A stretch of 64,000 nucleotides of DNA from an uncultured virus (IMG/VR IMGVR_UViG_3300021387_003972) (Duplodnaviria > Heunggongvirae > Uroviricota > Caudoviricetes): the IMG/VR virus record IMGVR_UViG_3300021387_003972; one strand, given 5' to 3'. Under the pieces are notes generated by a model. The model had not been told where the DNA came from, made no database searches, and worked only from the letters and a program-made list of their open reading frames with translations. Position numbers and translations under genes: made by a program. Shown piece by piece: positions 1-36,602 of the stretch. Within the stretch, counting starts at the first letter, position 1, and each line of letters starts with the position of its first letter.

Positions 1-2
1 AG

Positions 3-52
3 CAAAAAAGGCGCTTACCTCTCATTCGCACTGAATTCATCGGTAAGCGCCT
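3..52 (-). terminator. Probable intrinsic terminator belonging to the neighbouring element
   Basis: Inverted repeat aggcgcttacc / ggtaagcgcct followed on the minus strand by a T-run. Confidence 0.5.
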
Positions 53-182
53 GCCTTCACTAAGATATATTCTGTTGTTTGTCGCATCGAAAAGCTCTTT
101 TCCTTATATTGATAAAACGTTGATAAAAGTCCTGCCCCGGTGGCCTGAACCCCGCATAAATACTGGGTTTTTGACCATTTAG

Positions 183-221
183 TCAGATGCTTCCATGGCA
201 AATAAAAAGCACTTTAATCAT
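183..221 (-). pseudogene. 5' fragment of a low-molecular-weight protein-tyrosine-phosphatase gene at the att junction (MIKVLFICHGSI*)
   Basis: ATG ATT AAA GTG CTT TTT ATT TGC CAT GGA AGC ATC TGA with an upstream AGGAAGG RBS; matches the LMW-PTP N-terminus VLFICHGN(ICRS) but diverges right after CHG. Confidence 0.8.
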
Positions 222-245
222 ATTGGTTTTCCTTCCTGTAAGGGC

Positions 246-400
246 ACGATTTGCCGCGATATGCCGCACTTTGCGGAGTCGGTTTTCAGGCACATACTAT
301 CCAAAATTATAGGCCGAAATGGCAAATCGTGGCAAAACGAGGCAAATCGAGGACGTCAAACGTAGTAAAATCGTAGTAGAAATCGGGGTGTTTTACTACC
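246..400. repeat. Element-end protein-binding repeats (probable Int arm-type and Xis sites)
   Basis: Three 10-bp tandem repeats ggcaaa(t/a)cg at 321-350 and three degenerate inverted copies at 246-275; cgtagtaaaa/cgtagtagaa at 361-383 and inverted ttttactacc at 391-400 resemble Tn916 DR2 (AGTAGTAAATT). Confidence 0.6.
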
Positions 401-481
401 GGTGCCCTTTCGTGACTTTAGGTGACCTGGAGTGTATAGGGTTCTTCTCTCGCAAAAACACTTACATTTTTTCATTATTCA

Positions 482-2986
482 TCAGAAATAATTATCCAGA
501 ATATCCTTTGCCTTTTTCCCCAGTTCGTTAAGGTAATCATCATTACTTTTCACCCCTATTTTCACAACGCGTTCAAACATTGTCTTTGCCTTTTCCAGCA
601 TTTGTTTGTCAGCATACTTGAAAAAAATAAAACTCTTGCGAGCGCTATTGTTGAAGTAATATGCACCCATATTAAATAAAGTAATCGATAAATCTTTATA
701 TGCCTGTAGCGTCCCCATCTTCTCCGCGAGCTCCTCTGCGATGGCAAGGCTTTTCTCATAATAACTCTGCGCTCCACTCAGGTCTCCCTGTGCCTTCGCT
801 GTATCTCCGAGCTTATCACAGCTGATGGAAAGTTCCCTCCTCGACTCGACTGTCCCCGTCTTCTCCGCGAGCTCCTCTCTGATGGCAAGGCTTTTCTCAT
901 AATATCCCTGCGCTCTACTCAGGTCCCCCAGTGCTCTCGCTGTATCTCCGAGCTTTTCATAGCTGATAGACAGGTCCCTCCTCGACCCGATCGTTCCCGT
1001 CTTCTCAGCAATCTCCTCAAAAATAGCAAAGCTTTTCTCATAATATCTCTTCGCTCCACTCAGGTCCCCCAGTGCTCTCGCTGTATCTCCGAGCCTTCCA
1101 TAGCTGACGGACAGGTCCCTCATCGACCCGACCGTCCCCGCCTTCTCCGCGAGCTCCTCTGCGATGACAAGGCTTTTCTCATGATACCTCCGCGCTCCAC
1201 TCAGGTCTCCCTGTGCTGCCGCTGTATCTCCGAGCTTTACATAACTGACGTACAGGCCCCTCCTCGACTCGACTGTCCCCGTCTTCTCCGCGAGCTCCTC
1301 TGCGATGGCAAGGCTTTTCTCATAATAACTCTGCGCTCCACTCAGGTCTCCCTGTGCTGCCGCTGTATCTCCGAGCTTTTCATAGCTGATAGACAGGTCC
1401 CTCCTCGACCAGATCGTTCCCGCCTTCTCCGCGAGCTCCTCAAAAATGGCAAGTCCTTTCTCATAATATCTCTGTGCTCCACTCAGGTCCCCCAGTGTTC
1501 TCGCTGTATCTCCGAGCTTTCCATAGCTGACGGACAGGTCCCTCATCGACCCGACTGTCCCCGTCTTTTCCGCGAGCTCCTCTGCGATGACAAGGCTTTT
1601 CTCATGATACCTCTGCGCTCCACTCAGGTCTCCCTGTGCTGCCGCTGTATCTCCAAGATTGTTACAGCTGACGGACAGATACCGCCGGTATCTGTTCTCT
1701 CCTGATCCTGCACACTGTTCTGCCAGAGTATACATCTCGGCATAAGCCGCCTTCGCAGCTTCTAGTATCCCAAGCGCATACTGCGCATCTCCCAGGTTCC
1801 ACAGGCTGCTGATTAGTCTGGCCGCTCTGTCCCCTGTCGGATCCGCCTCATATGCTTTTCTCAGATATCCCACATGCTTTTCACGCCATCTGACCCCCTC
1901 AAAATAATCTCGCCCGACACCTTTTCCAGTCTCATACATCGTAACGAGCTGTTCCATTGCCTCAGGGACTCCCGCTTCTGCCGCGCCTTTGATCAGCTGC
2001 ACTGCCCGCTCAACATCGACTTCCACATCGATCCCGTCCAAATAGGCAAGGCCAATCAGGAAATTATGCTCCGGGTCCTCATCGTTGGCTTCAACTGCCA
2101 TTGTCCGGATCTTCTCCAGAAGCACCGCGCGAAAAGTCTCACTCTCTTTCCCCGACACGCAGGGCGGAAGCGCTTCGTAATGTTCCTCCAACAGGCTGCG
2201 GTCCGTCTCCTCCATCTCTACAGGCAGTACCGGCTTTCCCTGCTTTCTTGCTGCCGGGTATTCCGTGGTCATGACATAATTGATCTCATTTACCAGGTTC
2301 GGCGTCACGACCAGGGCAAACAGGTCGCTCTTTTGCAGCATCTTTCCGATCGCTTGATTGAAATCCTCGCCCGGGGTCAGGAACTCGTCATACCAGATCG
2401 CAATGTCGCGGCATAACGGATTGCGGTGGATCAGCCTCATTAACTCCTGGGCCTTTCTCCTGTCCTTTTTGCGATAACTCAGGAAAATATAGGCGTCAAA
2501 AGCCGCCCGGACCTTTTCAGCCAGCTCACTGCTGACAAGAACCGACTTGATGTAAGTCTCCAGCACCTCGTCAAAACTCCGCCGCGTCTCATCCGTATCA
2601 TTTGGATCCAGGTACTGCAGATCGCCGAATCGTTCCGAGTACATGTCCTCCACCCCGCGCTCCATCATGATGGGAAGTACCGGGATATGTCTCTCTTTTG
2701 CCAGCGGAAACTCAAAATCCATCGCGCGGTTTGCCGTCGTAAGGAGCTTTGTAGTGATCGGCATTACAAAGAGCTGCATCTGCGACAGGTTCAGCTCCAG
2801 GTCCTCCCTGTCATAGTCAGCTTCCGGCTCAGCTTCATACCAGATGGCGCAGTCCTGGATCCTGAGGACCCTGGCGGCATATTCTTCAAAATACTTCCCG
2901 AAGTCAGCCGGATAGCAGGCAAAATAAACCTTCGGCTTTCCCTGGGGTCTTTCATCGGCAATGGTCCTGTACTGTAATCTGGACAT
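482..2986 (-). CDS. Tandem TIR-domain protein with Sel1-like and TPR repeats (candidate defence/signalling moron)
   Basis: TIR-like 1 (KVYFACY..AIWYE..LFVMPIT..DFEFPLA..IPVLPI), TIR 2 (YIFLSYRKKD..IWYDEFLTPGEDF..LFALVVTP..TTEYPAA..PVLPV), Sel1 motifs (GLAYLDGIDVEVD..AAEAG; MYETGKGVGRD), then 7 x 47-aa TPR-like repeats. Confidence 0.88.
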   Translation of the reverse strand: MSRLQYRTIADERPQGKPKVYFACYPADFGKYFEEYAARVLRIQDCAIWYEAEPEADYDREDLELNLSQMQLFVMPITTKLLTTANRAMDFEFPLAKERHIPVLPIMMERGVEDMYSERFGDLQYLDPNDTDETRRSFDEVLETYIKSVLVSSELAEKVRAAFDAYIFLSYRKKDRRKAQELMRLIHRNPLCRDIAIWYDEFLTPGEDFNQAIGKMLQKSDLFALVVTPNLVNEINYVMTTEYPAARKQGKPVLPVEMEETDRSLLEEHYEALPPCVSGKESETFRAVLLEKIRTMAVEANDEDPEHNFLIGLAYLDGIDVEVDVERAVQLIKGAAEAGVPEAMEQLVTMYETGKGVGRDYFEGVRWREKHVGYLRKAYEADPTGDRAARLISSLWNLGDAQYALGILEAAKAAYAEMYTLAEQCAGSGENRYRRYLSVSCNNLGDTAAAQGDLSGAQRYHEKSLVIAEELAEKTGTVGSMRDLSVSYGKLGDTARTLGDLSGAQRYYEKGLAIFEELAEKAGTIWSRRDLSISYEKLGDTAAAQGDLSGAQSYYEKSLAIAEELAEKTGTVESRRGLYVSYVKLGDTAAAQGDLSGARRYHEKSLVIAEELAEKAGTVGSMRDLSVSYGRLGDTARALGDLSGAKRYYEKSFAIFEEIAEKTGTIGSRRDLSISYEKLGDTARALGDLSRAQGYYEKSLAIREELAEKTGTVESRRELSISCDKLGDTAKAQGDLSGAQSYYEKSLAIAEELAEKMGTLQAYKDLSITLFNMGAYYFNNSARKSFIFFKYADKQMLEKAKTMFERVVKIGVKSNDDYLNELGKKAKDILDNYF
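701..1687 (-). repeat. Seven tandem 141-bp (47-aa) TPR-coding repeats
   Basis: gctgtatctcc recurs every 141 bp; unit consensus RRDLSxSYxKLGDTAxAxGDLSGAxxYYEKSLAIxEELAEKTGTxxS. Confidence 0.95.
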
Positions 2987-3189
2987 ATACTCCTCCTTTG
3001 GATCAATTTCCTATTATCTATACAAAGTCCATTATAAACTGAGCGGCGTTTGATTCTGTTATGATCATTGGATCCGGAATCTCAGTTCGGATTTCCCTTT
3101 CAGACAAATCGTTATTTACTGCCGTACTCTATTTTAACATAACTAAAATAAGCCCTCCACACGAAGGTGAAGGGCCACTAATCCTCCAT

Positions 3190-4479
3190 TCATACCACTC
3201 TGAACATCTTCTTGCTCAGCTTTTCCTTCCCTTCCTTTACTCCATTCAGCTTCTCCTGCTCTCTCCGGGCTGACTCGACTTCCTCCATCCTGGCCATCTC
3301 TGCTGCCGCGTCCTCCATCCCCAGATGTGTGTAAACGTTCATCGTGACGCCGATGTCACTGTGACCCATCAGGTACTGCAGCGTTTTGGGGTTCATTCCC
3401 GCCTTCGCCTGGTTGCTACAATAGGTATGGCGGCAAATGTGAGGTGTAATATTCGGCAGCTGTTCCCGGTAGATCTCGTTGTAGCGGCTCACCGCATGGT
3501 TGAACCGATGCTCCCAGTGCATCGCCACTTCCGGCATGCCGTTCTTGTCCAGGTACAGAAATCCGGTATAGCCGCCAACCATCTTCTCTACCCGAGGTGC
3601 TTCTCGGTCCTCCAGAATTGCTTGAAAGCAGCGGAACACTTCCTCAGTCATGGGGAGCTTCCTTGTTCCTGCATTCGTCTTGGTAGACTCGATCATGTAC
3701 TCCATTTTGGTGGTCCGCTGCAACTGCTTGTTGATGTCGATGATCCTCTTCTCCATGTCGAGATCGTGGATGGTCAATCCGCAGAACTCCGAGATGCGCA
3801 TTCCCGTATGGAACAAAATATAGAATGCCTCGTAGTATCTGCAGTAGTTGTTATCGTCGTGCACAAACTTCAGGAACTTGCGCATTTGGTCTTTGGTGAT
3901 TGCCTCCCTTGTCACGCTGTCGTTGATCACCACCCCGGCAAGCTGGAATCCGAATGGATTTTTCTGCAGGTAGTCGTCGTCGACTGCCATCTGGAAGGCA
4001 GGACGGAGCACACCTCTCACTGTTTTGACACTGCTGTATCCTTTACCATCAGCCTGCATCTTGATCAGGAAGAGCTTCGCGTCTGATGTCTTTACATCCC
4101 CGATCCGTTTCCCGCTGAAATCCTCCTTCTCCAGAAGATTCAACACGAATCTGTAGTTTGTAAGCGTGCTGGGCTTTGCTCCGGTCCTGGTATCCAGGTA
4201 TCTCCTCACCAGCTCCATCACCGTCATGTTCTTCATCGAGGGATCCATCTGTGAGTCGAGGTCGTATCCGATCTTCTTCTCCATTTCCCTCAGCGAGAGG
4301 CAGGGCTTTTTCCCTTGCGGCAGCTTATCCGTCGGCTCCAATCGCCAGCTGTAGATGAATTTCGCCTTGCCGTTCACGTGGTACTTGAACTGATACAGGC
4401 CATCTTCCCTGACTGACTCGCCGACCCGCAGAACTCTATGTTTTGAATCTCTTCTTTTAGGAAACGCGCGCTTTGCCAT
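3190..4479 (-). CDS. int: Tn916-family tyrosine integrase
   Basis: N-terminal RRDSKHRVLRVGESVREDG arm-binding domain; catalytic TGMRISE, HICRHTY, LMGHSDIGVTMNVYTH. Confidence 0.95.
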   Translation of the reverse strand: MAKRAFPKRRDSKHRVLRVGESVREDGLYQFKYHVNGKAKFIYSWRLEPTDKLPQGKKPCLSLREMEKKIGYDLDSQMDPSMKNMTVMELVRRYLDTRTGAKPSTLTNYRFVLNLLEKEDFSGKRIGDVKTSDAKLFLIKMQADGKGYSSVKTVRGVLRPAFQMAVDDDYLQKNPFGFQLAGVVINDSVTREAITKDQMRKFLKFVHDDNNYCRYYEAFYILFHTGMRISEFCGLTIHDLDMEKRIIDINKQLQRTTKMEYMIESTKTNAGTRKLPMTEEVFRCFQAILEDREAPRVEKMVGGYTGFLYLDKNGMPEVAMHWEHRFNHAVSRYNEIYREQLPNITPHICRHTYCSNQAKAGMNPKTLQYLMGHSDIGVTMNVYTHLGMEDAAAEMARMEEVESARREQEKLNGVKEGKEKLSKKMFRVV

Positions 4480-4906
4480 TCTTTAATTCCTCCATAATCT
4501 CCGGGTGATCCTCCATGTACTCCTCAAACTCATCGCGGATGATGATCTTCCGCGTTTTGAAGAATGCCACGAAGGGAAGCTCCTCTTCACCCTCAAGCAG
4601 CTTCTTGAACTTCCTGCGGCTGAGGTCGTAGAAAACGATCGCTTCTTCCGGGTTAAATATGCTCTTGTCTTCCAATTGTGCTCTTTTCAATTCTTCTCCT
4701 TTGGTACCCGGCATGATCGGGTTTTTCTTCAGATATGCCTCAAACTCAGCTCGAATGATCAGGTAGCGGTTGCCGTTGTAAGCTGAGAATGTACCAAGGT
4801 GGTCTTCCGCAAGCCTTCTCATCCTCTTGATACCGATGCCGAAATAATCGGCTGCTTCCTTGATGGTCAGCGTGTATTTTTCACTTGTTGCTAATTTCTG
4901 GTTCAT
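4457..4906 (-). CDS. xis: Excisionase with two tandem Tn916-Xis-like domains
   Basis: EKYTLTIKEAADYFGIGIKRMRRLA..NGNRYLIIRAEFE, then a degenerate second copy (IFNPEEAIVFYDLSRRKFKKL..RKIIIRDEFEEY); overlaps the int start. Confidence 0.85.
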   Translation of the reverse strand: MNQKLATSEKYTLTIKEAADYFGIGIKRMRRLAEDHLGTFSAYNGNRYLIIRAEFEAYLKKNPIMPGTKGEELKRAQLEDKSIFNPEEAIVFYDLSRRKFKKLLEGEEELPFVAFFKTRKIIIRDEFEEYMEDHPEIMEELKNGKARVS

Positions 4907-4990
4907 AGCGATGCCTCCTTTTATTTTGGTATGCTATACATCACTCTGAACCGTACTAATATCAACAACTATTTGGCAGACGAACGATAA

Positions 4991-5191
4991 TTATATCGCT
5001 GATGCCTGCTGCAAAAACGCCTCAAACCTATCGCGGATGATGAGGTACCGGTTGCCGTTATAAACTGCGAAGTCTCCAAGGTTGTCCTCCGCGAGTCTGC
5101 GCATCTTCTTAGTGCCGATGCTGAAATAATCAGCTGCTTCTTTGATAGTGAGCGAGTACTTCTCGCTTAAAGGTACTTTGTTCTCATTCAT
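4991..5191 (-). CDS. xis: Tn916-type excisionase
   Basis: KVPLSEKYSLTIKEAADYFSIGTKKMRRLAE..NGNRYLIIRDRFE. Confidence 0.9.
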   Translation of the reverse strand: MNENKVPLSEKYSLTIKEAADYFSIGTKKMRRLAEDNLGDFAVYNGNRYLIIRDRFEAFLQQASAI

Positions 5192-11060: not shown

Positions 11061-13040
11061 TTATGAGAACTTGATATTAAAAGATGAAGACATCACGATC
11101 GGCGTACAGTTAGTGATCGCCGTGCCCCCACTCGTAACCCACTTTGTGGAGTTCGTCAGTTTTATCCTGATCATCCCGATCTCCTTTGTAATTGAGATCT
11201 CGGGACTGTACGAAGCCATGTTTATATTGGCAAAAACTCCTCCGGATGCCGACGCTTTATTATACACGAACCCCTGTGTCGATCTTACGGTCATGACTCC
11301 GCTCACCAGCGTTGCAGATGAAGCGGTTATAGGTCTTCCGAGCGAATAAATAAGATACATCTCTGTTGAGGCTGTCATTATCGTGCCGAACCCCCATATA
11401 CCAACAGTCATCGTATCACCTGCCTTGATCACAGCGTCTGTAAGACTGGACAACGATATGGTCTTGCTGCCAACTTTTCCGTTGTTCGCATACAGGAACT
11501 GGCCGTTTGTGAGAGATGTCGGCGTATCCGTGCTGATTGACGGGACCTGCCCGATGAGCTTTCCGTCTTTGGCGCAGAGGAACAATCCGTTCCCGAAACT
11601 GGTCAGAGTCTGCGCCCCAATTGTAATGATATCCCTGATGTTGACCTGAACACCGTTCCCAGTCATAAAGAAGGCGTCATCCCTGAACAGCGCTTTGAAG
11701 GCACAGTCCAGATAGTTTTCCATAGTCGCCTTCTGACCGAACGCGACTCCTTTTCCTCCATGAAGGAAATGCATCAGATAAACTGCTGTCGAGATATAGT
11801 CTGTAAAAGAGACCGTACAGAACTGATCCGTGACCTCGTACATCACATCATAGGAGAACTCCGTATCGAGGTCATTATTCCCGCAGGTATTCACTCCGGG
11901 CTCGATCGCAGCTTCGGTCCCATAAACAACCGCGTCTGTCTTCTTGTACTTCACCGTCATGGTAATGGCGTTCTTTCCGTTGCAGGTCGAGAAGCTCACT
12001 GCGGTCGTACTCTTAAAATACGTTCCGTCATTGTCGACTGTCCCATCTGCCAGGCACCTCTCACTCACACAGGCCGTAAACTTGGGAGCCGCATAGGGGA
12101 CAAAGGTCACAGTCGCTGCCTTTGAAGCTGTCCTGCCTCTGCTGTCTGTCACTGTCACCGTACAGGCCAATGATCCGCTCTGTGTGATCACATCGATCAT
12201 AGGAAGACTCGATGCCGAGTAGGCATGTGAAACGGACTGCGTCCCCACCTGCAGCTTTATCTGCGAGATGGTAGAACTGTACGCTCCTGCTGTCGTGATA
12301 GCGGATACCCTCACGCCGCTCTTGTGCTGGATGAACATGTTCCAGGCAGACGGCACCGGCGTATCCGTTTTGTCTGCCAGCGTAATGCTCGTGAGCGTCG
12401 GAACTACACTCGACGGCACTGAAACCGTCAGCTTAACCGTAAAGCTCGAATATACCAGTCCTCCGTAAAGGACCTGGCATGTCACATTCGCCTGCGCGGT
12501 CACCGCGTTCGGAACAGCGTTGCACCAGGCGATCGGGATCGCGTACTCGAGCGTCTTTGTGGTGGAGGTCGCGCTTCCTGTATAGGACCCCAGTGTAAAT
12601 GTGGCCTTGTAGGTCGCGTCCGTACCGGAGGTGGTGAATACCACCCTCGATTTCGTGCTCCCATCCATCACACCACCTGAGGTCGTTGCTGCTGTCGGAG
12701 CTTTCTCGATCTCATAGAAGGAAAACTCCTGATTTAAGAGTTCCCTACCGTCATAGGAATCTGTCAGTTTCAGAGTAAAAAACGGCTTGCTTATCGTCAG
12801 CTGCTGACTGGTCATCTTTATCTTGTAGGTCGTCCCCATCATTGTTGACGTCTTGTTTGTCGTCCAGCTGCAGGACTGCTTCGTGCCATTCACATAGACA
12901 TTTATCGTTCCCTGAACACCCCAGTATGAATTACTCGCCGTATACACCATCGTCAGCTTAGTCGTGGCTCCCGAGACTGACCCTGTTGCCACAAGGATAT
13001 TATCCAATACATCTTTGATCGTCCTCTTCGTAAGGCTCAT
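11061..13040 (-). CDS. Minor tail / receptor-binding protein (DUF859-like)
   Basis: Position before the holin; Thr/Ser-rich beta repeats, TVTDSRGRTAS, ERCLADGT, GKGVAFG motifs. Confidence 0.7.
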   Translation of the reverse strand: MSLTKRTIKDVLDNILVATGSVSGATTKLTMVYTASNSYWGVQGTINVYVNGTKQSCSWTTNKTSTMMGTTYKIKMTSQQLTISKPFFTLKLTDSYDGRELLNQEFSFYEIEKAPTAATTSGGVMDGSTKSRVVFTTSGTDATYKATFTLGSYTGSATSTTKTLEYAIPIAWCNAVPNAVTAQANVTCQVLYGGLVYSSFTVKLTVSVPSSVVPTLTSITLADKTDTPVPSAWNMFIQHKSGVRVSAITTAGAYSSTISQIKLQVGTQSVSHAYSASSLPMIDVITQSGSLACTVTVTDSRGRTASKAATVTFVPYAAPKFTACVSERCLADGTVDNDGTYFKSTTAVSFSTCNGKNAITMTVKYKKTDAVVYGTEAAIEPGVNTCGNNDLDTEFSYDVMYEVTDQFCTVSFTDYISTAVYLMHFLHGGKGVAFGQKATMENYLDCAFKALFRDDAFFMTGNGVQVNIRDIITIGAQTLTSFGNGLFLCAKDGKLIGQVPSISTDTPTSLTNGQFLYANNGKVGSKTISLSSLTDAVIKAGDTMTVGIWGFGTIMTASTEMYLIYSLGRPITASSATLVSGVMTVRSTQGFVYNKASASGGVFANINMASYSPEISITKEIGMIRIKLTNSTKWVTSGGTAITNCTPIVMSSSFNIKFS

Positions 13041-15262
13041 TCCTTCTCACCTCCAAAGTCCACTTTGAAAACTCCGTCCTCATCCTCTACCGGGATGTAC
13101 TCCGAAGCTCGCCTTGCCATCAGCTTCATCCCCGCTCTCATCGCATTCATAGTGACACCATTCGACTGCTGCACAGCTCTCCACTTCACACCCATGCCGT
13201 ACTCGGTCGAGATGAAATCGAAGTATCCGCCATCTGCCGCAGCACCAACAGAGAGCCTGTCCATCGCTTCGATCGCGTTGATGTGCATCTTGTTGTACTG
13301 GACATAGGCGATCTCCGATCCGTTCTGCAAGAAGGCCATCTTCTCGTTGTCGAGGTTGATGGAGTAGGGAGACTCATCGCCGTCCTGCTGCTTGCCGATG
13401 TTGAGACCATCCTCATTGAAGCGGAAATACGTGCTGGTCTCGTGCTTGTAGTCGAGAAGGGCGTCCTCCTGATCAGAGACTCTCTGGTTAAGCTCTACGA
13501 CAGAATCGCTGAGCGCTTCATCCGTCTGGGCAATGCTCTCCTGACAGTCCTGGATGCCGGCAGCCAGCGTCCCAGTGACCGTGCTGATGGAGATCTCGAT
13601 CTCGTCAGCCTTCTGGGATACCGCGCTCTCCGCGTAGGTCCTTACCCTCTCCTCCGCATCTACAACCTCCTCCCTTGCTTTCTCAGCAAGTTTCCGGGAG
13701 GCATTGTCGAGCGGCTGGAATGCTCCATCCACAAAGGCATAAAGCCTGTCAGACGATGTGAAATATCCGACAGTCGCACTGCTCATCACGCCGAGCGAGA
13801 TATAATACATACCATCCTCTTCTGTCGGGACCACTGTCGTCATCCAGTTCGATGCTGCGATCGTGAAGTGGTTATCCTCCACTTCTCCCTTCAGCCACAG
13901 TATCTTGGCAGCGGTGCCGGATTCGATCGTTCCCGTGGTTGAGAAGTTTACATCCGGCATGGCCTCATAGGTGGTTTTTGCCGTAGCGTTCGCGGCGATC
14001 GCCGCCGAGGCATAGAGGATCGGATAGGCAAGGTCGAACATAAGAGACGCCGCCAGGTTCTTATACCCGTCTGCATTTCCGGCGATCAAGTGTGCCTTCG
14101 TGACAGCGGCTACTGCCTTGATCGCCGTGTTGTGAAGGACCCTGTCATAGGTATTGGAGTTCGGTATAGATGCCGCCCTCCAGTTCGTTCCGTCATAGGT
14201 CATGTTGATAACACACCCGGCTCCGAAGTGGGTCGTCACCCGCGTCGTATTCAGATAGACCGGTATGGCGGCTGTCGCAGATCCGTCAGCCAGCGTCAGG
14301 GTAAGAGACGCATTTCCGCTTCCGGCATACGGCAGCTTATAGGCGATCGTTTTCCCCGCATAAAGAGCGATATCCGTCGATACACCTTTCCATGATCCGG
14401 TGGCGGCTGTCTGCGTCCCCACGATATACTCCACACTTCTGGAAATCGCGGTATCAGCCTTCGCATCAACTGCGGCTACGGACGCATTCACATCCTCCGG
14501 TGCCGGCGTCCAGTCAGTCGCTTTATTACCGATCTCCAGTTTTGCCTTTGAAACGATAACAGTTCCCGAACTAATACCCTGAATATAGATTCCGATATTA
14601 TGCTCTGCCGCTATGTCTGTCTCTACAGTCCATATAAAGCTGATCCGATCATGAAAGGAATTTCCTGTAATAGAAGCAGCCGCTCCTGTTCCTGTATCCC
14701 CGGATCTGTAAGCCCAGCATCCCAGATACTGTGTTCCGCTGGTCGCCTTTGGATTTGCTATTTCCATACCGATCCTGTGATAGGTATGTGTGCCCCAGAC
14801 AATTTCATCAGCATCGATCCGTATCGACAGCGTTAAAGTGGTGCCTGCCGGAATGAGTTCTGAACTTTTTAATGTAAGAGTTGAAGAAGTCCCTGATCTT
14901 TCCAGTATCTGGCTGGATCTGAGAATATAGTTTCTCCCTCCGACTGTAAGGTTCTCGATATTCTCCTGCGCCGCCACTGCCTTGTTGTAGGCAGCCTTGG
15001 CTGCTTCATAGGAACTGGAAAGAGACACGTCGCTGTAGGAAAACGTAGCGTCCGTGAACACCGTAAGGTCCGTAAAATACAGGCTGTTGGTGCTCCCGGA
15101 CGTATAGGAGGGCTCTGTCTTTACCCAGCTCCCTCCCGGCGGATTCGCAGTAGGCTTTGAAGGCATGGAGGAAGTAGAGCTCTGCAGGAGATAATATCTT
15201 GTAACGCTCTGAACGTCCCTGATAGTCGCGAGCGTGATCTCTGCTTTTGCTTTTACTGCCAT
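13037..15262 (-). CDS. Tail fibre / baseplate protein with an internal carbohydrate-binding-like insert
   Basis: SSSYEAAKAAYNKA, VGGRNYI..KLEIGNKATDWTPAPED, C-terminal YFRFNEDGLNIG..MAFLQNGSEIAY. Confidence 0.75.
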   Translation of the reverse strand: MAVKAKAEITLATIRDVQSVTRYYLLQSSTSSMPSKPTANPPGGSWVKTEPSYTSGSTNSLYFTDLTVFTDATFSYSDVSLSSSYEAAKAAYNKAVAAQENIENLTVGGRNYILRSSQILERSGTSSTLTLKSSELIPAGTTLTLSIRIDADEIVWGTHTYHRIGMEIANPKATSGTQYLGCWAYRSGDTGTGAAASITGNSFHDRISFIWTVETDIAAEHNIGIYIQGISSGTVIVSKAKLEIGNKATDWTPAPEDVNASVAAVDAKADTAISRSVEYIVGTQTAATGSWKGVSTDIALYAGKTIAYKLPYAGSGNASLTLTLADGSATAAIPVYLNTTRVTTHFGAGCVINMTYDGTNWRAASIPNSNTYDRVLHNTAIKAVAAVTKAHLIAGNADGYKNLAASLMFDLAYPILYASAAIAANATAKTTYEAMPDVNFSTTGTIESGTAAKILWLKGEVEDNHFTIAASNWMTTVVPTEEDGMYYISLGVMSSATVGYFTSSDRLYAFVDGAFQPLDNASRKLAEKAREEVVDAEERVRTYAESAVSQKADEIEISISTVTGTLAAGIQDCQESIAQTDEALSDSVVELNQRVSDQEDALLDYKHETSTYFRFNEDGLNIGKQQDGDESPYSINLDNEKMAFLQNGSEIAYVQYNKMHINAIEAMDRLSVGAAADGGYFDFISTEYGMGVKWRAVQQSNGVTMNAMRAGMKLMARRASEYIPVEDEDGVFKVDFGGEKE

Positions 15263-15264
15263 TT

Positions 15265-16335
15265 TTATCCCTCCAGCTGCGCGATGTAGGTTGCCTTATT
15301 TGTTACGTCTCCGGAACTGATGTTGAGCGTGGGACCTGTGGTGGAAAGAGCTGTTGTGGATCCGTCCTTATACCACTTGATCGTTCCCAGCGCCGCGATC
15401 TGCGTAGCATTCAGCTCTGTTCCGGCCTTATACACATGAGCAGTCAGAGTCGTGACAACAGCCGTGTTTTTGAAGATAGTGCCGTTGGAGCTCGTCACCG
15501 TCATGGTGATGGCGTCCGCTCCCGGATCTCCCGGATCTCCTTTTCCGCCCTTGATGTTATTGACATACACCCACTTAGCCGCGCTCGCCGCCCCGGCAAC
15601 AGTGCAGCGGTAAGTATTGTAGGTGCTGGTGTTCAGGTACATATCACCGACTTTCGCCGCCGTGATGCCAGAGCCCGAGAAGACCGTCGCAGTAGTCGAA
15701 GTGCCTGTGATCTTGGTACCCGTGTACCAGATAGCCCCCGGTCCGATATCTCCGGTCTGTCCCTTGATATTTCCGACATAGACCCACTTCGCAGCAGACG
15801 CCGCTCCTCCTACCGTACAGCGGTAGGTATTCATGGTATCGGTGTTGAGATACATGTCTCCGACCTGAGCATTTGTGATGCCGGAGCCCGAAAATGCCGT
15901 AGCGGTCGTACTTGTACCCGTGATCTTGTTGCCGGAATACCACTGGGCGCTGCTGCCGGCCGCGCCTGTCTGCCCCTTAAAGGAAATCTGGAAGGTGAAC
16001 AGCTTGTGGATCACAATGTTTCCACCATCAAGAGATACCGGGATATCCACCGTTCCGCCTTGCGTTACAGAAGTCGATACGCTGATCGTGATGGTCGGCT
16101 GCGTGGCGTCTGTATCCACAGAAGTCGTTACACCTGACGGCGCTACGATAGCGGAGTTGTCGACAGTCGCCGGAACCTGGCCGCTGCCGCACATGGCGAC
16201 GACAGTCGTGGTCGTACTCCCCGCCAGCGCCGCGTCAGTACTTCCGGCAAAGGTAAATGAATCGTTCGTCAGTATGACGGAATAGCCGTCTGTAAGGTCG
16301 ACGATACTGATCTGGTCTGAACTTTTAATAGCCAT
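15265..16335 (-). CDS. Tail-associated protein with short collagen-like linkers and a duplicated 71-aa module
   Basis: IVDLTDGYSVILTND N-terminus; GxxGxxG linkers; SSNGTIFKN..TLTAHVYKAG C-terminus. Confidence 0.7.
   Translation of the reverse strand: MAIKSSDQISIVDLTDGYSVILTNDSFTFAGSTDAALAGSTTTTVVAMCGSGQVPATVDNSAIVAPSGVTTSVDTDATQPTITISVSTSVTQGGTVDIPVSLDGGNIVIHKLFTFQISFKGQTGAAGSSAQWYSGNKITGTSTTATAFSGSGITNAQVGDMYLNTDTMNTYRCTVGGAASAAKWVYVGNIKGQTGDIGPGAIWYTGTKITGTSTTATVFSGSGITAAKVGDMYLNTSTYNTYRCTVAGAASAAKWVYVNNIKGGKGDPGDPGADAITMTVTSSNGTIFKNTAVVTTLTAHVYKAGTELNATQIAALGTIKWYKDGSTTALSTTGPTLNISSGDVTNKATYIAQLEG
15545..15942 (-). repeat. Two-copy 213-bp tandem duplication (WYxGxKITGTSTTAT..GDMYLNT..KWVYVxNIKG)
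   Basis: Matching Trp codons at 15940-15942 and 15727-15729 are 213 bp apart; the two protein copies are clearly similar. Confidence 0.85.
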
Positions 16336-16348
16336 TTGAATTCTCCTT

Positions 16349-19069
16349 TTAATCAATGATCATGCTGCAGCGGAAAGTGACCTTCACATCCACGTCCTCC
16401 GCACTGAGCGCAAAAACAAATCCGCCATCAGACAGTCTCCTGTCATCAGCGGATATAACACCGTACCGGTCCTCGTCCATCCTAAGCCACTCCCACTCGA
16501 GCCGGGCAGTATTTCCGAATACAGCCTTCAGCTGCTCTCCTGTCGTGATCCTCTGGCTGCCGTAGTAGATCGTCACGGTAAGTACCGTTGCTACTCCCGT
16601 GTTCTTGAACACAGTACCTTTACTGGAATCAATGCGGAGCAGGACCGCAGCTTCCCCATCCGCGCCGACAGCGCCGGTAAGGCATGTGGGTGAAGACGTC
16701 TTTTTATTTCCGCTAGCATAGGTCGTGACGGTCTTCTGCCACATATACATCCCGTCCACCCACTCCGGAGCTTCCAGGCTCCATCCCGGATCATCGTCAG
16801 CAGGCGGGACTGTCTCTGAGTTATTGAGCACATAAAAAACAGCCACATCGGTCACCGTTCCTCTGACCTCGGTCTTGATATCCGAGATCGTTCGGGTGAA
16901 ACCTTCGGCTGTCTCCTCTACTGTATTAACCCTTGCCGTGAGCGCCTGTACGGTCGATCCGTCCGCCTTGCTCTCAAGGGATGTCTGCACATCCCCGATC
17001 TCTGTTGTGATGCCTTCGATCGTCTGCTGCTGAGTGCTGTACTGATCAGAGAGCTGTGAGATACTGCTCCCGAGGGGCGTCACTGCCTCCGTGATATCAG
17101 ACTTCCATACCTTCGACTCGATCTGGCCTTGTACCTCTTTGAACTCCGTCTGCAGGGTCTCCGTAGCCTGCGCGTTTTCACTGATCTGCGTGGTCATGGT
17201 CTGATAGTTCGCTTCGAGCGTGGTATCATCCATCACGACATGGGAGGCGTCCACAGAGAGCGTCCCGTCATCTGTGAGCTCTTTGGCGACAGACTTGATG
17301 TTGAGCTTACTGCCATCAATGGCGGCGTCCTGTGCTACCATGCTGTCCACGATCAGCCCGTCCGGTACGCCGTCAGCCGTGATGCCGTCCGGAGACCAGA
17401 TGAGCTTTCCTGAAGCGTCCCACAGGTAGTAATTAAAGTTCCCCTGTCCGTCCTTACCGATCTGGACCCTGGGCGTCCCGTTTGTGTCCTTGATAAGGAT
17501 CGTAGCTCCGTCGATGGAAAGCGCTCCGTCCTTCGATGCTACTTTCACGAAATCCGTAAAGATCGTCGCTGCCGTGACATTTCCCGCCATGAGGTCATCC
17601 ATGACCGCCTGTGCGATCGTGGCATCCTCGATCACGATGTTATCGCCGGTCAGGTGGATCGCCTGAAGCGTTCCGACTCCCGCGTTACCAGCCAGCAGGC
17701 TCTCGATATTTCCGGTCGCCGCCTGCAGGGCTGAGACATTCGCGTTCGTGGCATTAAGGTCCGTGATCGCCGCCTTCTCCGCCACCATATGCTCAATCTC
17801 GGCGTCAGCTGCCTGCAGGGCCGCCACGTTGGCGTTTGTGGCATTCAAATCGACAACATCAGCTTTCTGGGCAAGGAGCGTATCGATCTCACCGACCTGG
17901 GCATGCAACGCGCCGATATCCGCGTTCGTTGCCTGGAGCTTATCCGTCACCACGTGCTTAAAAGCGGTGAAGTTCTCCGACAGGGAAGTAAGGGCCGCTG
18001 CCGTTCCCCTGCTCATGGAAGAAGCCAAGGTCAGAAGTGTCGCTCCAAGTGTCAGCCTGGAGTTCTCCGGGTGAAGAAGGTCCAGATAGATCTTCCGGAT
18101 CACCATGTAATCATCAAGGCCATGGGGCTCCGATACCACCCGGATGCTGTCCCCCACTTTGCAGCGTTCGATCTCCACATCCAGAAGATGCAGATCGACC
18201 GCTGTGATCGTGATCGTTGTCAAAAGGATCCTCTGCCGGTTCAATACCTCGATGCCTTTCCGGAGCAGATTTTCCGGAAGCTCCACGTCATCGTACTCCA
18301 CGACCTTGACGATCCTTCCGTAGATGGCGATGGCGTCCGGATCTTCGATGTAGTCTTTTCCGTCATTGACAGAAGCAATAGTGAGGCGCTCATCCGTCTC
18401 CTCATCACGCTTACCGAGAGGAACGATTACTGTGGCAAGGCTGTCACAGTCACCTTCCCTCGTCAGATCGAGAATGTTCTCCCCGAACCGGATCACCTGA
18501 GAGTTGGTGTGACCGAAGTCCTCGATGTAGTCAATAAACCTCTGATCATTCTCATGACGAATACGGATGTATCCTCCAAGTCGCTTGATCAGACGGTCCT
18601 CGATGGTTTTCCAGGTATTCTCATAAGTACTGTAGCGGTACAGGCTGTCATTGCTGTCCGTGACAGTCACCTGTCCTACTGCAAACCGCTTTCTCTCATC
18701 CACATCAGTGTTGTGCTTAGTGATAAGATCTGTAAAGTAATCCTTCACGCTAATGTCATGGTACTCGTGATAGCGCTGAATGCTGTCGAGAAGGTAAGAA
18801 AGCTCCCCTTCACACTCAATCGTCCGGTTTCCGTAAAAGTCGAATCCATCAGAGAGGACCCTGCCAGTGTACAGCCACTCCTCATCCTGATAAACAGACA
18901 GCTCTGAATACATCTTCCGGAGTTCATCAATCTTCGGATGCGCCACAGGGATGGTGAACTTGAGTGTCCCGGTCTTGTTGACTTCCAGGTCCAGGGTCAT
19001 GTCTGTAAGGCCCAACTCCTGGATACGGGGATCATAAAAGAGCTCCCCGTCAAGATAGATCAGATACAT
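16349..19069 (-). CDS. Tail hub / Tal-like protein (prophage tail endopeptidase family) with coiled-coil extension
   Basis: Follows Dit; LEVNKTGTLKF..GRVL..IECEGELSYLLDS; QVIRFGENILDL; RVQIGKDGQGNFNY. Confidence 0.8.
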   Translation of the reverse strand: MYLIYLDGELFYDPRIQELGLTDMTLDLEVNKTGTLKFTIPVAHPKIDELRKMYSELSVYQDEEWLYTGRVLSDGFDFYGNRTIECEGELSYLLDSIQRYHEYHDISVKDYFTDLITKHNTDVDERKRFAVGQVTVTDSNDSLYRYSTYENTWKTIEDRLIKRLGGYIRIRHENDQRFIDYIEDFGHTNSQVIRFGENILDLTREGDCDSLATVIVPLGKRDEETDERLTIASVNDGKDYIEDPDAIAIYGRIVKVVEYDDVELPENLLRKGIEVLNRQRILLTTITITAVDLHLLDVEIERCKVGDSIRVVSEPHGLDDYMVIRKIYLDLLHPENSRLTLGATLLTLASSMSRGTAAALTSLSENFTAFKHVVTDKLQATNADIGALHAQVGEIDTLLAQKADVVDLNATNANVAALQAADAEIEHMVAEKAAITDLNATNANVSALQAATGNIESLLAGNAGVGTLQAIHLTGDNIVIEDATIAQAVMDDLMAGNVTAATIFTDFVKVASKDGALSIDGATILIKDTNGTPRVQIGKDGQGNFNYYLWDASGKLIWSPDGITADGVPDGLIVDSMVAQDAAIDGSKLNIKSVAKELTDDGTLSVDASHVVMDDTTLEANYQTMTTQISENAQATETLQTEFKEVQGQIESKVWKSDITEAVTPLGSSISQLSDQYSTQQQTIEGITTEIGDVQTSLESKADGSTVQALTARVNTVEETAEGFTRTISDIKTEVRGTVTDVAVFYVLNNSETVPPADDDPGWSLEAPEWVDGMYMWQKTVTTYASGNKKTSSPTCLTGAVGADGEAAVLLRIDSSKGTVFKNTGVATVLTVTIYYGSQRITTGEQLKAVFGNTARLEWEWLRMDEDRYGVISADDRRLSDGGFVFALSAEDVDVKVTFRCSMIID

Positions 19070-31509: not shown

Positions 31510-31685
31510 GTCTGTTTCCTCCGTTTGTGCTTTGTTTTCCCTTTCGGTATGTGTAGATTAACTCTAAGGCACATACATATCCACTCAATTCGGAGGCATA
31601 AATCCGACAAAGATCGCTCCATGTAACTGTGTATATTTACACGAGCAAAAGGCCCTTCCCTGGGCCTCCTGTTCGGGTTCCTTCC

Positions 31686-31922
31686 TCATTCATTCAGCAG
31701 GTACCGGTAGGTTCCTTTCGGATTCTGCGTGGTCTGTTCATCGTCCAGGAGCCGGAGGGTGGCGTCAAACCGGCGCTTCAGTTCCCGCTTGATACTGCGC
31801 TGGGCGATCTCCCGGTCCTTCTGGTTGATCCGCTTTGCCTCCCAGGCGTAAGCCTCGATCAGCTCCTCCGTTGTCCAAAGTCTGTAATCGCAAATTCCCT
31901 CAAGTCTTGCTCTGCTTGCCAT
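31686..31922 (-). CDS. Hypothetical protein (accessory array)
   Basis: MASRARLEG.., AGGAGG RBS. Confidence 0.65.
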   Translation of the reverse strand: MASRARLEGICDYRLWTTEELIEAYAWEAKRINQKDREIAQRSIKRELKRRFDATLRLLDDEQTTQNPKGTYRYLLNE

Positions 31923-31935
31923 GTGCTTGTCCTCC

Positions 31936-32256
31936 TTATGCTCTCTCAACATCTACCAGCCAGCCGGCTTCGGGGTGCTTCTCTCCGGTTGCCTTCTCTG
32001 TGATCTGCCTCTCTTCATCGATGTAGTGAAGGCCCTTGCCTACCTTGATCAGCTTCACCTCTTCGAATCCCGGAAGGTTTGTGCGGTAAACCTTCGCGTT
32101 TCTGCTCTCGCCATCGTAGCTCTTGCCATCCCATCCGTTAAAGGTAAAGCGGATGCTCTCGCGGGTCTTTGTGAAGTGTGCTTCGAACTCTGCTCTTGTG
32201 ATCGTGGTGTTGTAGTTTCTAAGTTCCAGGCTGTTTCTCATTGCGTATGCGTTCAT
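31936..32256 (-). CDS. Hypothetical protein (accessory array)
   Basis: 106-aa ORF, AGGAG RBS, directly after a repeat element. Confidence 0.75.
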   Translation of the reverse strand: MNAYAMRNSLELRNYNTTITRAEFEAHFTKTRESIRFTFNGWDGKSYDGESRNAKVYRTNLPGFEEVKLIKVGKGLHYIDEERQITEKATGEKHPEAGWLVDVERA

Positions 32257-32378
32257 GGGGTTCCTCCTTTGTGGCTTCCGTGTTTTTTGTTAGTGTATTA
32301 ATCACTCTAAAGCACATATTTATCCACTCATTTCGGAGGTATAAATCCGACAAAAATCGGCGGCAGAAACTGTGTATT

Positions 32379-32582
32379 TTATATCCGCTCGATCTGGCAG
32401 GTCATGCCGTCGACCTCGACAATCCGCCAGTCAGATCCGCGCCACCGGACCTCCAGGATCCGGACGCCCGTATAGGCGTTGCTCCTCTGCCGGTCGGAGA
32501 GCACGTTTCCGTGCTTCTCCATCCACTCTGCAAGGTTCCCCTTGAGCCTTGCTTCCTGCTCCATCTTTTCCGCGATGTTCAT
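32379..32582 (-). CDS. Hypothetical protein (accessory array)
   Basis: 67-aa ORF with an AGGAGG RBS. Confidence 0.65.
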   Translation of the reverse strand: MNIAEKMEQEARLKGNLAEWMEKHGNVLSDRQRSNAYTGVRILEVRWRGSDWRIVEVDGMTCQIERI

Positions 32583-32595
32583 TCCGGACCTCCTT

Positions 32596-33039
32596 TCACT
32601 GAAGGCGGAAAAGGTAGCCGTGAACCTTTTCCCTTTCGCCGGTGGTCCAGTCCCTGTTCAGGCCGTAAAGTTCGACCAGGCCCTCAAGTTTGCAGCCGTT
32701 TTGCTGGAAGATCCAGGCGCTCTCTACTGCGCTGCTCCAGCCGGAGGAAAAGGTGAAGTGCTCGACTCCGTATTTTCTAAGGGTCTGCAGAACTCCCACC
32801 TCGTCGTGGATCGAAAAGCTCAGGTCGATGTACTCGTTTCCGCATTCCTTCATCTGCTTGTAAAGCCGGTAGGTGAATCCGAAGTCATCATCCTCTGTCC
32901 TGAGGATCTCGTCTTCCATCTTGTGGTAGGCGTCTCTCGCCTCTTTCATCCCGGTATCGTTCTCTGCTGCCCTGGCTGCGTCAAATGCTGCTTTAAGCTC
33001 CTGCTCTCTTTCGTAAACCTGCTCTAATGTGTGCTTCAT
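32596..33039 (-). CDS. Conserved prophage hypothetical protein (DUF7698-like)
   Basis: GNEYIDL..GVEHFTFSSGWSSAVESAWIFQQNGCKLEGLVEL. Confidence 0.65.
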   Translation of the reverse strand: MKHTLEQVYEREQELKAAFDAARAAENDTGMKEARDAYHKMEDEILRTEDDDFGFTYRLYKQMKECGNEYIDLSFSIHDEVGVLQTLRKYGVEHFTFSSGWSSAVESAWIFQQNGCKLEGLVELYGLNRDWTTGEREKVHGYLFRLQ

Positions 33040-33162
33040 GGTGATCTCCTTTCTGGGTGGGTGTTTTCTTTTCGTAGTGTATTAATCACTCTAAAGCACA
33101 TTTATATCCAGTTAATTCGGAGCATAATCTGCACAAGATTGGAGGAAATATATGCAGCAAAT

Positions 33163-33726
33163 TTACAAGCCATATGCAGCAGCATTGAATGGTGTTCTTC
33201 TGGGAAGCGCATGGTATCCGGCAGCAGCGCAGATCTTCTCGACCTCTTCATCGGAGAGTACCCTCAGCACCCGGATACTTCCGGCGATGATCCACTTGCC
33301 GAGCATCTGCGGGCTGGTCTTGTAGCGGTAGAAGCCCTGCTTTGGTACCCTTGTCAGCATTGCCTTTCGCTCATCAAAGCGGCCGTCCTTCCAGCCATTC
33401 TGATTCGCCTCCTCCTGGTAGTCGAAGCAGTCAACATACACACACTCGCACCAGACCTCGTCATCATGCATGTACTTGATCTGCCCGTTCTCTTTGATCC
33501 CGATATGAATCGCCAGCGGGATATCCGACAGATGCCAGCCAGGCCGGAAGGCGAGCGGCCCTATTTTGGACTTCACTTTCCCCTCCGGCGTCCGAGGGCC
33601 TTCCGCGGCATCGATCCAGATTCCCATCGGCACTGGCTTGTCTGAAAGAACATACAATGGGAACAGTTCTCCCGGCCTGTTCTTTTTTACCCTGAATAAC
33701 TTGTATCCGATCATGATATCGCTCAC
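33163..33726 (-). CDS. Hypothetical protein with conserved GYKLF..LFPLYV..LAFRPGWH motifs
   Basis: 187-aa ORF; motif pattern suggests a folded enzyme-like domain, function not assigned. Confidence 0.65.
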   Translation of the reverse strand: MSDIMIGYKLFRVKKNRPGELFPLYVLSDKPVPMGIWIDAAEGPRTPEGKVKSKIGPLAFRPGWHLSDIPLAIHIGIKENGQIKYMHDDEVWCECVYVDCFDYQEEANQNGWKDGRFDERKAMLTRVPKQGFYRYKTSPQMLGKWIIAGSIRVLRVLSDEEVEKICAAAGYHALPRRTPFNAAAYGL

Positions 33727-33765
33727 GAAAAAAGGAGCCTTTCGGCTCCCTTTTTCCTTCCTTTC

Positions 33766-34137
33766 TCAAAGGTGGTATTTCTGTCCGGTGATAATGTTCA
33801 CCACTGTTTTGCCTTTTCCGAAGGCTGCTCTCATCTCGTCAAGTTCTTCCTCTGTGGCGGGCCTGGCGTTTTTCCGGTACTCTTCGAGGGCTTTTGCGGT
33901 TTCCTCTTCTCTTGCCTTCGTCGTTGCCTCTGCGTCGACCGCGTCGGTGATGTAGGTGAGCTTCTCGAGCATGTCGCTCATCAGAACTCTTCCGATCCGG
34001 TTTCTGGCTACTCCGCTCTCGTCGATGATGATGAGGCCCTGCTCCAGTTCTTCCCTGACTTTCTCCAGTTCCTTTTCTGCGCTCTGTTTCCAGTATGCTC
34101 CAAGGGCTCCGCTCAGTTCCTTCTCAAATCTCGTCAT
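33766..34137 (-). CDS. Hypothetical protein (accessory array)
   Basis: MTRFEKEL..EMRAAFGKGKTVVNIITG; AGGAGG RBS after a repeat element. Confidence 0.7.
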   Translation of the reverse strand: MTRFEKELSGALGAYWKQSAEKELEKVREELEQGLIIIDESGVARNRIGRVLMSDMLEKLTYITDAVDAEATTKAREEETAKALEEYRKNARPATEEELDEMRAAFGKGKTVVNIITGQKYHL

Positions 34138-34256
34138 GGTCTTGTCCTCCTTCATGGCTTCTGTGTTTTTTGTTAGTGTATTAATCACTCTAAAGCACAT
34201 TTATATCCACTCATTTCGGAGTCATATCTTGCACAAGGATTCTGGCGGATGTTTGT

Positions 34257-34652: not shown

Positions 34653-34738
34653 CCCTATCTCCTTTCCGAAGGCTCTACCCTTCTACCACCTTAAGCCCGC
34701 CGGTGGCGGGTAAGGCTGCAGGAGGCTGGCTCCTTCGT

Positions 34739-35689: not shown

Positions 35690-35816
35690 GGTATGTGCTC
35701 CTTTCCTGGCTGGGTGTGTTTTCTTTTGGTAGTGTATTAATCACTCTTTTCCACACTTATATCCAGTTAATTCGGAGCATAACCTGCACAAAGATCGCTG
35801 CCGCTGGCTGTGTATT

Positions 35817-36482: not shown

Positions 36483-36602
36483 GGTGTTTTCCTCCGTATT
36501 TGTGATCCGAGGGCCTATTCCCTCCGGGTAGTGTATTAATCACTCTACCCGGAAGAATTAGCAACACACACATCTGACAAATATGTGAATGGAAAATAGC
36601 AG

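Follow-up and report, generated by a model that had tools for sequence, protein, structure and literature searches.

A tandem-TIR, Sel1 and TPR repeat protein in the integrase-att slot of a gut Clostridia prophage: a candidate single-chain sensor-effector

We analysed a 64,000-nucleotide stretch of DNA from an uncultured virus (IMG/VR record IMGVR_UViG_3300021387_003972; hereafter the window, meaning the whole stretch), which is a siphovirus-type temperate prophage of a cattle-gut Clostridia bacterium. Between its integrase gene and its attachment (att) junction lies a minus-strand gene (482-2986) that encodes an 834-residue protein with two consecutive TIR folds, two Sel1-like repeats and a long TPR array. 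Our favoured reading, held with moderate confidence, is that this protein is a single-chain, NAD+-cleaving TIR sensor-effector, carried as prophage cargo for the exclusion of other phages. More tentatively, the asymmetric pre-linked TIR pair (a pseudo-TIR and a catalytic TIR), gated by Sel1/TPR repeats without an NTPase switch, may represent a widespread and undescribed class of immune receptors in gut Clostridia, the window copy having been captured as a superinfection-exclusion gene. Both proposals start from direct observations: the two folds and their conserved residues, the place of the gene as cargo, and a family distribution that is patchy, multicopy and partner-less.

The second of the two TIR folds (domain 2, residues 164-297; 2096-2497, minus strand) is a canonical TIR by Pfam match and by fold. 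Pfam TIR_2 (PF13676) matches residues 167-261 at E 5.4e-13, with 49.9 bits against a cutoff of 28. A fold search with residues 164-297 returned the SARM1 TIR as the best match (Z 14.5), followed by IL-1RAcPb, MyD88 and SpbK (Z 13.2), and the ThsB structure 6lhy scored Z 12.6; the best structural matches are NADase (NAD+-cleaving) or signalling TIRs. For a model of both domains together (pLDDT 85.8, pTM 0.55), the top Foldseek match was to two-domain GTPases (Der/EngA), which we rejected as a generic match to an alpha/beta pair (TM 0.31, root-mean-square deviation (rmsd) ~14 Å). Residue conservation was assessed on 332 family members, taken from the matches of searches with residues 1-300 and 1-163 and from genes called in genome loci; these were aligned to a profile of residues 1-300, counting only rows in which more than 250 positions aligned. 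S170, R172, D175, W198, D200, E201 and E242 of domain 2 are invariant (332/332), and a Glu occupies position 233 or 234 in 330 of the 332 proteins.

A fold like that of the MyD88, TIRAP and BtpA TIRs, in a protein from an animal gut, could also suit a mimic directed at the animal host, which would interfere with Toll-like receptor (TLR)/MyD88 signalling in the gut. Such interference has been proposed for TcpB/BtpA-type proteins. We consider this explanation very improbable here: the 834-residue sequence has no N-terminal hydrophobic signal, no secretion genes lie nearby, NADase TIRs are the better fold matches, and the multicopy diversifying arrays described below would better suit intracellular sensing. 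The protein is proposed to be cytoplasmic.

Domain 1 (residues 15-152; 2531-2944, minus strand) has a diverged TIR fold. Pfam returned no family at E ≤ 10 for residues 1-164 alone, and the sequence tie of domain 1 to TIR runs only through domain 2: residues 15-163 align with residues 164-300 by BLASTP at E 1e-11, with 31/112 identical. An AlphaFold model of residues 1-160 (pLDDT 90.2, pTM 0.86) matched only TIRs among its 11 best VIA-align hits (Z 10.5-11.6 over 122-134 residues, rmsd 2.8-4.0) and among its 10 best Foldseek hits, which included RPS4, BtpA, AbTir, SPARTA and a B. cereus TIR. When residues 1-163 were used to search 1.84 billion representatives with phmmer, 2046 proteins matched at E ≤ 0.001 and 917 at E ≤ 1e-30. 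Among the 150 matches listed, 143 contained two matching stretches, five contained three, one contained four and one contained one, consistent with the domain 1 query matching both domains of most of these proteins. These results indicate that domain 1 is a diverged duplicate of domain 2. The presence of two consecutive TIR folds, which had been proposed in an original prediction made from the sequence alone, is confirmed by TIR_2 and fold for domain 2 and by fold and homology to domain 2 for domain 1.

Domain 1 has a conserved set of its own, consisting of C24 (289/332), His or Tyr at position 25, D28 (307/332), C46 (328/332), W49, Y50 (318/332), E92, H100 (305/332) and E109 (318/332). It has neither the S-Y-R start nor the D-E-F-L-x-P-G-E loop of domain 2, and is probably a constrained, non-catalytic TIR. 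The Cys-His...Cys...His part of this set might bind a metal or a ligand. Position 25, which lies within that part, is His in 312 of the 332 proteins and Tyr in 12 and in the window protein, whose Tyr25 codon is at 2912-2914.

Catalytic competence depends on where the catalytic Glu is placed. In TIR NADases this residue lies in helix C within the motif W-x-x-x-E. When the family profile was aligned with C. elegans TIR-1, E242 stood opposite the Glu of W-V-H-K-E, which we take to be the catalytic Glu of SARM1-type TIRs. In alignments with AbTir, the Glu of its N-Y-E stood opposite V238, and in a MAFFT alignment with five canonical TIR_2 proteins encoded next to family members, their L-N-E Glu stood opposite E234. 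Domain 2 therefore presents a conserved Glu under the TIR-1 (E242) and the TIR_2/BcTpr (E234) registers and V238 under the AbTir register, whereas domain 1 does so only under the E242 register: E92 and E242 align with each other in the BLASTP comparison of the two domains, and the domain 1 equivalent of E234, T84, is variable. Since a conserved Glu is available under two registers in domain 2 and under one only in domain 1, domain 2 is likely to be the enzyme and domain 1 probably is not. The original prediction had a catalytic Glu kept in each TIR, which is borne out only in part. E242 is Glu in all 332 proteins and the E92 position is Glu in 258 and Asp in 54, but the registers disagree on the canonical Glu, and the other invariant residues of domain 2 are missing from domain 1.

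The two TIR folds are followed by two Sel1-like repeats (residues ~297-375; 1862-2098, minus strand), which belong to the conserved core of the family. Solved Sel1-repeat proteins match residues 297-371 with E values down to 4.3e-21, though the Pfam Sel1 match at residues 310-339 falls below its cutoff (19.3 against 30.7 bits). The remainder is a TPR array of 7-8 units of 47 residues (569-1834, minus strand), delimited by Pfam and by the DNA repeats. TPR_12 (E 1.1e-38) and TPR_10 each match in seven stretches, the array spanning residues ~370 to 780, and a 141-nucleotide tandem unit occurs in seven copies at 569-1714. The seven TPR repeats counted previously were thus recovered, and LGD-anchored units number eight if two degenerate end units are included. 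The array holds a recent duplication of a three-unit block, in which the units at residues 444 and 585 are 95.7% identical in DNA. A 646-residue protein that is 100% identical over residues 1-300 (P0001) was considered as a clean repeat-number variant and rejected, the shared prefix being only 568 residues.

Taken as a whole, the protein gives Pfam matches to TIR_2, to Sel1 below threshold and to seven TPR_12/TPR_10 stretches, and a search of solved structures with the entire sequence returned Sel1 and TPR chains only. The architecture of two TIR folds, two Sel1-like repeats and a TPR array is therefore as first described. No NTPase family appeared among its Pfam matches at E ≤ 1, and no ThsA-, SIR2-, SLOG- or Cap-like gene is present within the window, in agreement with the earlier view that the protein has no NTPase (STAND) module and no adjacent ThsA/Cap effector.

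The open reading frame at 482-2986 is real, with an ATG start on the minus strand and a strong ribosome-binding site (AAAGGAGGAG, 2990-2999, minus strand) upstream of it. Further upstream is a lone -10-like element, TATAAT (3031-3036). It had been taken as the gene's own promoter element; it is present on the minus strand, but a promoter scan called no full promoter there. A terminator-like hairpin of 10 pairs with a T-rich tail (3151-3176, minus strand) sits directly after the stop codon of the upstream integrase gene, which makes transcription of the 834-residue gene separately from the integrase plausible.

The surrounding genes are those of a phage. Terminase, portal, protease, major head, tape measure and tail proteins, a holin, an endolysin, two excisionases and the integrase are encoded on the minus strand, and replication genes, a helix-turn-helix (HTH) protein and ImmA on the plus strand. 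The nearest record is an IMG/VR provirus (G001; 61.7 kb, CheckV 100%) that carries an identical gene. We compared the window with 80 IMG/VR loci encoding relatives of its tyrosine integrase (3190-4479, minus strand), and similarity to related proviruses ends at the integrase stop codon. In two loci whose integrases are 98-99% identical (L081 and L082), DNA similarity to the window stops exactly there, at 3189/3190. In L082 it returns after 720 bp at window positions 187-436 (92.8%), and a hexapeptide acetyltransferase gene takes the place of the TIR gene between the integrase stop and this segment. The segment is a conserved module with repeated GGCAAA(T/A)CG motifs, common to other proviruses and to many bovine gut contigs. 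At its edge the window holds a 12-codon stub of a low-molecular-weight phosphatase gene (MIKVLFICHGSI and a stop codon; 186-221, minus strand), which marks the att junction, and L082 holds a 16-codon stub of the same gene. In a third locus (L131), window positions 331-401 lie ~100 nucleotides past the integrase and are followed by a complete phosphatase gene. Because the phosphatase gene is a stub in the window and L082 and complete in L131, we take 187-436 to be the phage att arm; by these comparisons the att junction is placed near 186-200 and the cargo slot at 437-3189.

Bovine gut metagenomes agree with this placement. One error-free contig covers 1625-3250, contigs over 155-462 add up to ~8-14 times the depth seen over the TIR gene, and contigs depart from the window sequence at 436/443 and 3189/3250. 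The location of the gene in a variable cargo slot between integrase and att, as originally predicted, thus finds support in the provirus comparisons, the phosphatase stub and the bovine gut contigs alike. Since relatives lose similarity at the integrase stop and one regains it at 187-436, the gene can be regarded as cargo of the integrase-att slot; it lies between conserved phage segments and is swapped for other genes in relatives, as expected of a prophage cargo gene (moron).

No second att copy was found, which leaves the other end of the prophage undefined. There is no direct repeat of at least 13 nucleotides between 1-3300 and 38000-64000 and no att copy among the repeat families of the window; a search with words of 11-13 nucleotides that included 5.4 kb of extra flank gave chance-sized matches only, and none of the 16-mers of 100-260 recurs at 44000-64000 within one mismatch. 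The att arm contains a promoter-like sequence on the minus strand (TTGCCA-18-TATAAT, 335-306, 11/12 matches) as well as the first phosphatase codons, and a phage integrated at its usual site would by this arrangement give the host phosphatase gene a new 5' end. The remainder of the phosphatase target gene was not found outside the att junction. Beyond the junction (left of ~186; 11480-16703 in G001/L002) are genes for a DUF5688 protein, an HTH_36 replication-initiator-like protein, an IstB-like ATPase, ParA and ParB. Genes of this kind typically occur together on conjugative elements, and with them directly outside the att junction the prophage abuts another mobile element.

Other occupants of the slot were surveyed among 91 open reading frames just downstream of integrases, of which 51 were scanned with Pfam after near-identical duplicates and most frames shorter than 100 residues had been omitted; they were placed by position after the integrase, whether within the prophage or beyond it. 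Defence-type genes among them encode a ThsB_TIR protein (L096), an HTH protein with a C5 DNA methylase (L088), a DUF4268 protein with AbiH (L106) and HsdM (L134), and one locus (L121) gave a weak RelA/SpoT-like match. The others include three GNAT acetyltransferases, transposases, recombinases and ParA/ParB, and three phosphatase genes represent the host target. Judged by these gene contents, the integrase-att slot is variable and sometimes carries defence genes.

The protein belongs to a large family of more than 2000 clusters at 50% identity. A search with residues 1-300 gave 3420 proteins at E ≤ 0.001 among 5869 candidates; the named matches are generic "TIR domain-containing" or "tetratricopeptide repeat" proteins from metagenome-assembled genomes (MAGs) of Firmicutes, Lachnospiraceae and Clostridia. 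The family core is the TIR-like domain, the TIR and the two Sel1 repeats, and the C-terminus varies: it is mostly TPR, in some members Sel1 only, LRR (P0090, P0092) or FHA (P0075). A search for split forms among shorter proteins yielded 398 matches, mostly fragments cut at contig ends. Among species-representative genomes, a relative is encoded in at least 553 of 617 candidate stretches. The 80 best genome matches are from Clostridia apart from a few MAGs of Treponema/Spirochaete, Muribaculaceae and Erysipelotrichaceae. At E ≤ 1e-30, a member is present in 5 of 201 sampled genomes of one taxonomic family; in the sample of the class Clostridia, 10 of 399 scored genomes have one (2.5%), seven of the 10 with 2-3 matches. 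The gene could be called in 75 of 77 neighbourhood loci, four of which (L010, L038, L063 and L029) hold tandem arrays of 2-3 paralogues. Clustering of 448 proteins encoded within ±4 genes in the 75 loci revealed no conserved partner, and no neighbour family occurs in more than eight loci. The homologues are thus not mostly fixed housekeeping genes, being patchy in distribution, often multicopy and without a conserved neighbour.

No named system has this architecture, either in PADLOC or in the literature searched (main texts, outside subscription journals), in which we found no description of a bacterial tandem-TIR-Sel1/TPR protein; in this the original prediction held. Several known proteins resemble it in part. 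SpbK of the Bacillus subtilis element ICEBs1 recognises a phage protein with a domain outside the TIR and becomes active when its TIRs cluster, the NADase active site lying at the BE interface of a TIR pair (PMC12847820). Like the window protein as we read it, SpbK is a single TIR NADase protein on a mobile element that acts against phages, a likeness by fold (Z 13.2 to domain 2) and by description; it differs in having one TIR and a small N-terminal sensor in place of tandem TIR folds and C-terminal Sel1/TPR repeats. BcTir/BcTpr is reported as a two-gene anti-phage system in which a non-catalytic TIR acts with a TIR/MilB-like glycosidase-TPR fusion (bioRxiv 10.1101/2023.05.26.542521). By eye, the N82/E86 spacing of its catalytic residues is that of N230/E234 in the window protein (T228-P-N-L-V-N-E234). 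BcTpr has a short TPR (415 residues) and acts with a second gene, whereas the window protein is one chain with Sel1 and a long TPR array.

SARM1, the best structural match of domain 2 at Z 14.5, is an autoinhibited NADase with a repeat-domain regulator, and C. elegans TIR-1 resembles domain 2 in alignment through the F-x-S-Y-R start, the T-P-N end of strand C and the spacing from Glu to strand D. SARM1 is arranged as ARM-SAM-SAM-TIR, with one TIR and a SAM octamer, while the window protein has no SAM domain and carries its regulator at the C-terminus. TIR-STAND proteins (Avs/TIR-NLR) likewise combine a TIR effector and a TPR sensor in one chain, and a TIR-NB-ARC-TPR gene adjoins a family member in one locus (L024). 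The NB-ARC, NACHT or AAA P-loop NTPase that defines them is absent here, and a second TIR fold and the Sel1 pair stand in place of the NTPase switch. Dictyostelium TirE has two diverged tandem TIRs, missed by Pfam models, and an RCC1 repeat domain (PMC13142454); on that description it is alike in its tandem TIRs with a repeat domain, and differs in being eukaryotic and in its repeats.

An invariant TIR pocket, a fused second TIR, modular and duplicating repeats, a patchy, multicopy and partner-less spread and capture in a phage slot together form a pattern that points to a conflict gene and not to a housekeeping one. Because of this pattern, of the two-TIR active site and clustering of SpbK and of the anti-phage precedent of BcTir/BcTpr, we favour an NAD+-cleaving sensor-effector. 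The Sel1/TPR array would bind a protein from a phage or other mobile element entering the cell, and this binding would cluster or unlock the TIR pair. Domain 2 could then cleave NAD+, with depletion or an ADP-ribose (ADPR)-type product as the outcome, and the resulting abortion of infection would shield both the lysogen population and the resident prophage. Since a TIR NADase builds its active site from a pair of TIRs, the conserved and probably non-catalytic domain 1 may supply domain 2 with a partner, or a lock, in the same chain.

Several observations weigh against this reading. The position of the canonical Glu differs by alignment (E242 with TIR-1, V238 with AbTir, E234 with the neighbouring TIR_2 proteins), and the aromatic W of W-x-x-x-E is replaced by V or I in the tandem-TIR family. 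The low pTM of the two-domain model (0.55) makes the relative placement of the two TIRs unreliable. PADLOC, run on the 834-residue protein, gave weak matches to ThsB1 (E 8.9e-5), SAVED-TIR and a generic TPR model. The 130 immediate neighbours of homologues are mostly housekeeping genes (CTP synthase, GroES, gyrB, cmk, dnaX and others) with one integrase; PADLOC models match 16 of the 130, mostly through generic ATPase or methylase models, and the defence-island signal around homologues is weak, none being clear. Only two IMG/VR records (G001 and L161) contain a family member, and there is none in 50,697 GenBank phages or in 72,556 plasmids. Two RNA runs (X17 and X18) were rejected as evidence of transcription, since they yielded short contigs of relatives only (2739-2926 and 2357-2411; ~90-95% identity) and left most of the gene uncovered. 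Our confidence stays moderate because the defence-island signal is weak, the family is almost missing from phages and the catalytic register is unsettled. A scan of viral contigs with the single protein returned no locus. In favour of the reading, the homologue in L161, which is 47% identical, lies three genes (~5 kb) downstream of McrBC. Five of the 130 immediate neighbours encode other TIR proteins, including the TIR-NB-ARC-TPR protein mentioned above and a TIR-methyltransferase, and two encode CARF nucleases. The original proposal of a defence gene agrees with the patchy and often multicopy distribution, but the family is overwhelmingly chromosomal and most of its immediate neighbours are housekeeping genes.

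These same features could mean that the family does not serve immunity at all. Its members might act as accessory regulators or scaffolds in the physiology of Clostridia, in NAD or nucleotide sensing, stress, sporulation or kin interaction, and the phage copy would be a chance passenger. The mostly housekeeping neighbours without a defence-island signal, the great rarity of the family on phages and plasmids, and the Cys/His/Asp/Glu set that domain 1 has of its own, which suggests ligand or metal binding, would all fit this explanation. We nevertheless consider it unlikely, because the family shows traits usual in conflict genes: patchy presence (2.5% of sampled genomes), multiple copies and tandem arrays, swappable repeat modules and residence in a phage cargo slot where other proviruses have Abi, restriction-modification and ThsB genes. 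If the proteins prove not to be immune, they would still form a large unexplained TIR family of gut anaerobes.

That the gene is prophage-borne also raises the question of phage counter-defence. The protein would then benefit the phage by sequestering or degrading the signals that host TIRs produce, or by poisoning the assemblies of those TIRs, and domain 1, with its resemblance to a non-catalytic TIR, might cap TIR filaments. The ratio of at least 553 chromosomal loci to two viral records speaks in the other direction, as do the invariant catalytic-type set of domain 2 and the large sensor-like repeat array, and we give this explanation very little weight.

The NAD+-cleaving sensor-effector that we favour would act within one chain. 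Alternatively, the protein could be a Thoeris-like signal producer, in which domain 2 would make a cyclic ADP-ribose (cADPR)-type messenger when infection is sensed, leaving the response to an unlinked effector encoded elsewhere in the host genome. Such a role would be in keeping with the weak PADLOC matches to ThsB and SAVED-TIR models and with the Macro, PARG and NUDIX genes, each of which is next to one homologue among the 130 immediate neighbours. In two loci, moreover, the gene immediately before the homologue on its upstream side, on the opposite strand, encodes a CARF-PD-(D/E)XK (Card1/Csx1-like) nuclease (8565-9806 in L023 and 8566-9807 in L034); the nuclease is a possible receptor for a TIR-made nucleotide. 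The resemblance to Thoeris ThsB consists of the TIR fold (Z 12.6 to 6lhy), the weak ThsB1 match and the occurrence of a ThsB_TIR gene after the integrase in L096. Thoeris pairs ThsB with a ThsA effector (SIR2/Macro-SLOG), and the window has no ThsA-, SLOG- or SIR2-like gene, no partner is conserved within ±4 genes in the 75 loci, and the window protein is far larger and has repeats. A phage-borne copy that relied on a host effector would in addition function only in some hosts. We therefore consider a signal producer improbable, more so than a role outside immunity.

A natural tandem TIR in which one copy is probably inactive would offer a direct test of how a TIR-TIR interface is pre-formed or locked. 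The protein could also show how a repeat sensor gates a TIR without the ATPase switch of NLR/Avs receptors, and its phage-borne copy provides a defined setting, prophage against incoming phage, in which to seek the trigger.

Several other features of the window were recorded. Two excisionase-like genes lie in tandem at 4457-5191; the first (149 residues) is internally duplicated, with 171-nucleotide direct repeats at 4727-4897 and 5009-5179 that are 75% identical. At 31561-36547, an ~80-nucleotide element with the core GTAGTGTATTAATCACTCTA and a conserved leader occurs upstream of at least 4-5 consecutive minus-strand early genes; its 4-5 copies are 66-100% alike, and it looks like a reiterated promoter or operator. 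The region 34739-39329 contains an Amidoligase_2 gene, a ParB-N-fused DNA methylase (type II MTase model, E 1e-145) and a 261-residue protein with only the N-terminal domain of SAM synthetase. At the far end (59354-63835, minus strand) are genes for a GmrSD-family protein (HEC-05 model, E 2e-47) and a UvrD/GajB-like helicase (E 2e-40), preceded by a 224-residue open reading frame of no known family; the cluster is defence-like and may lie inside or outside the prophage.

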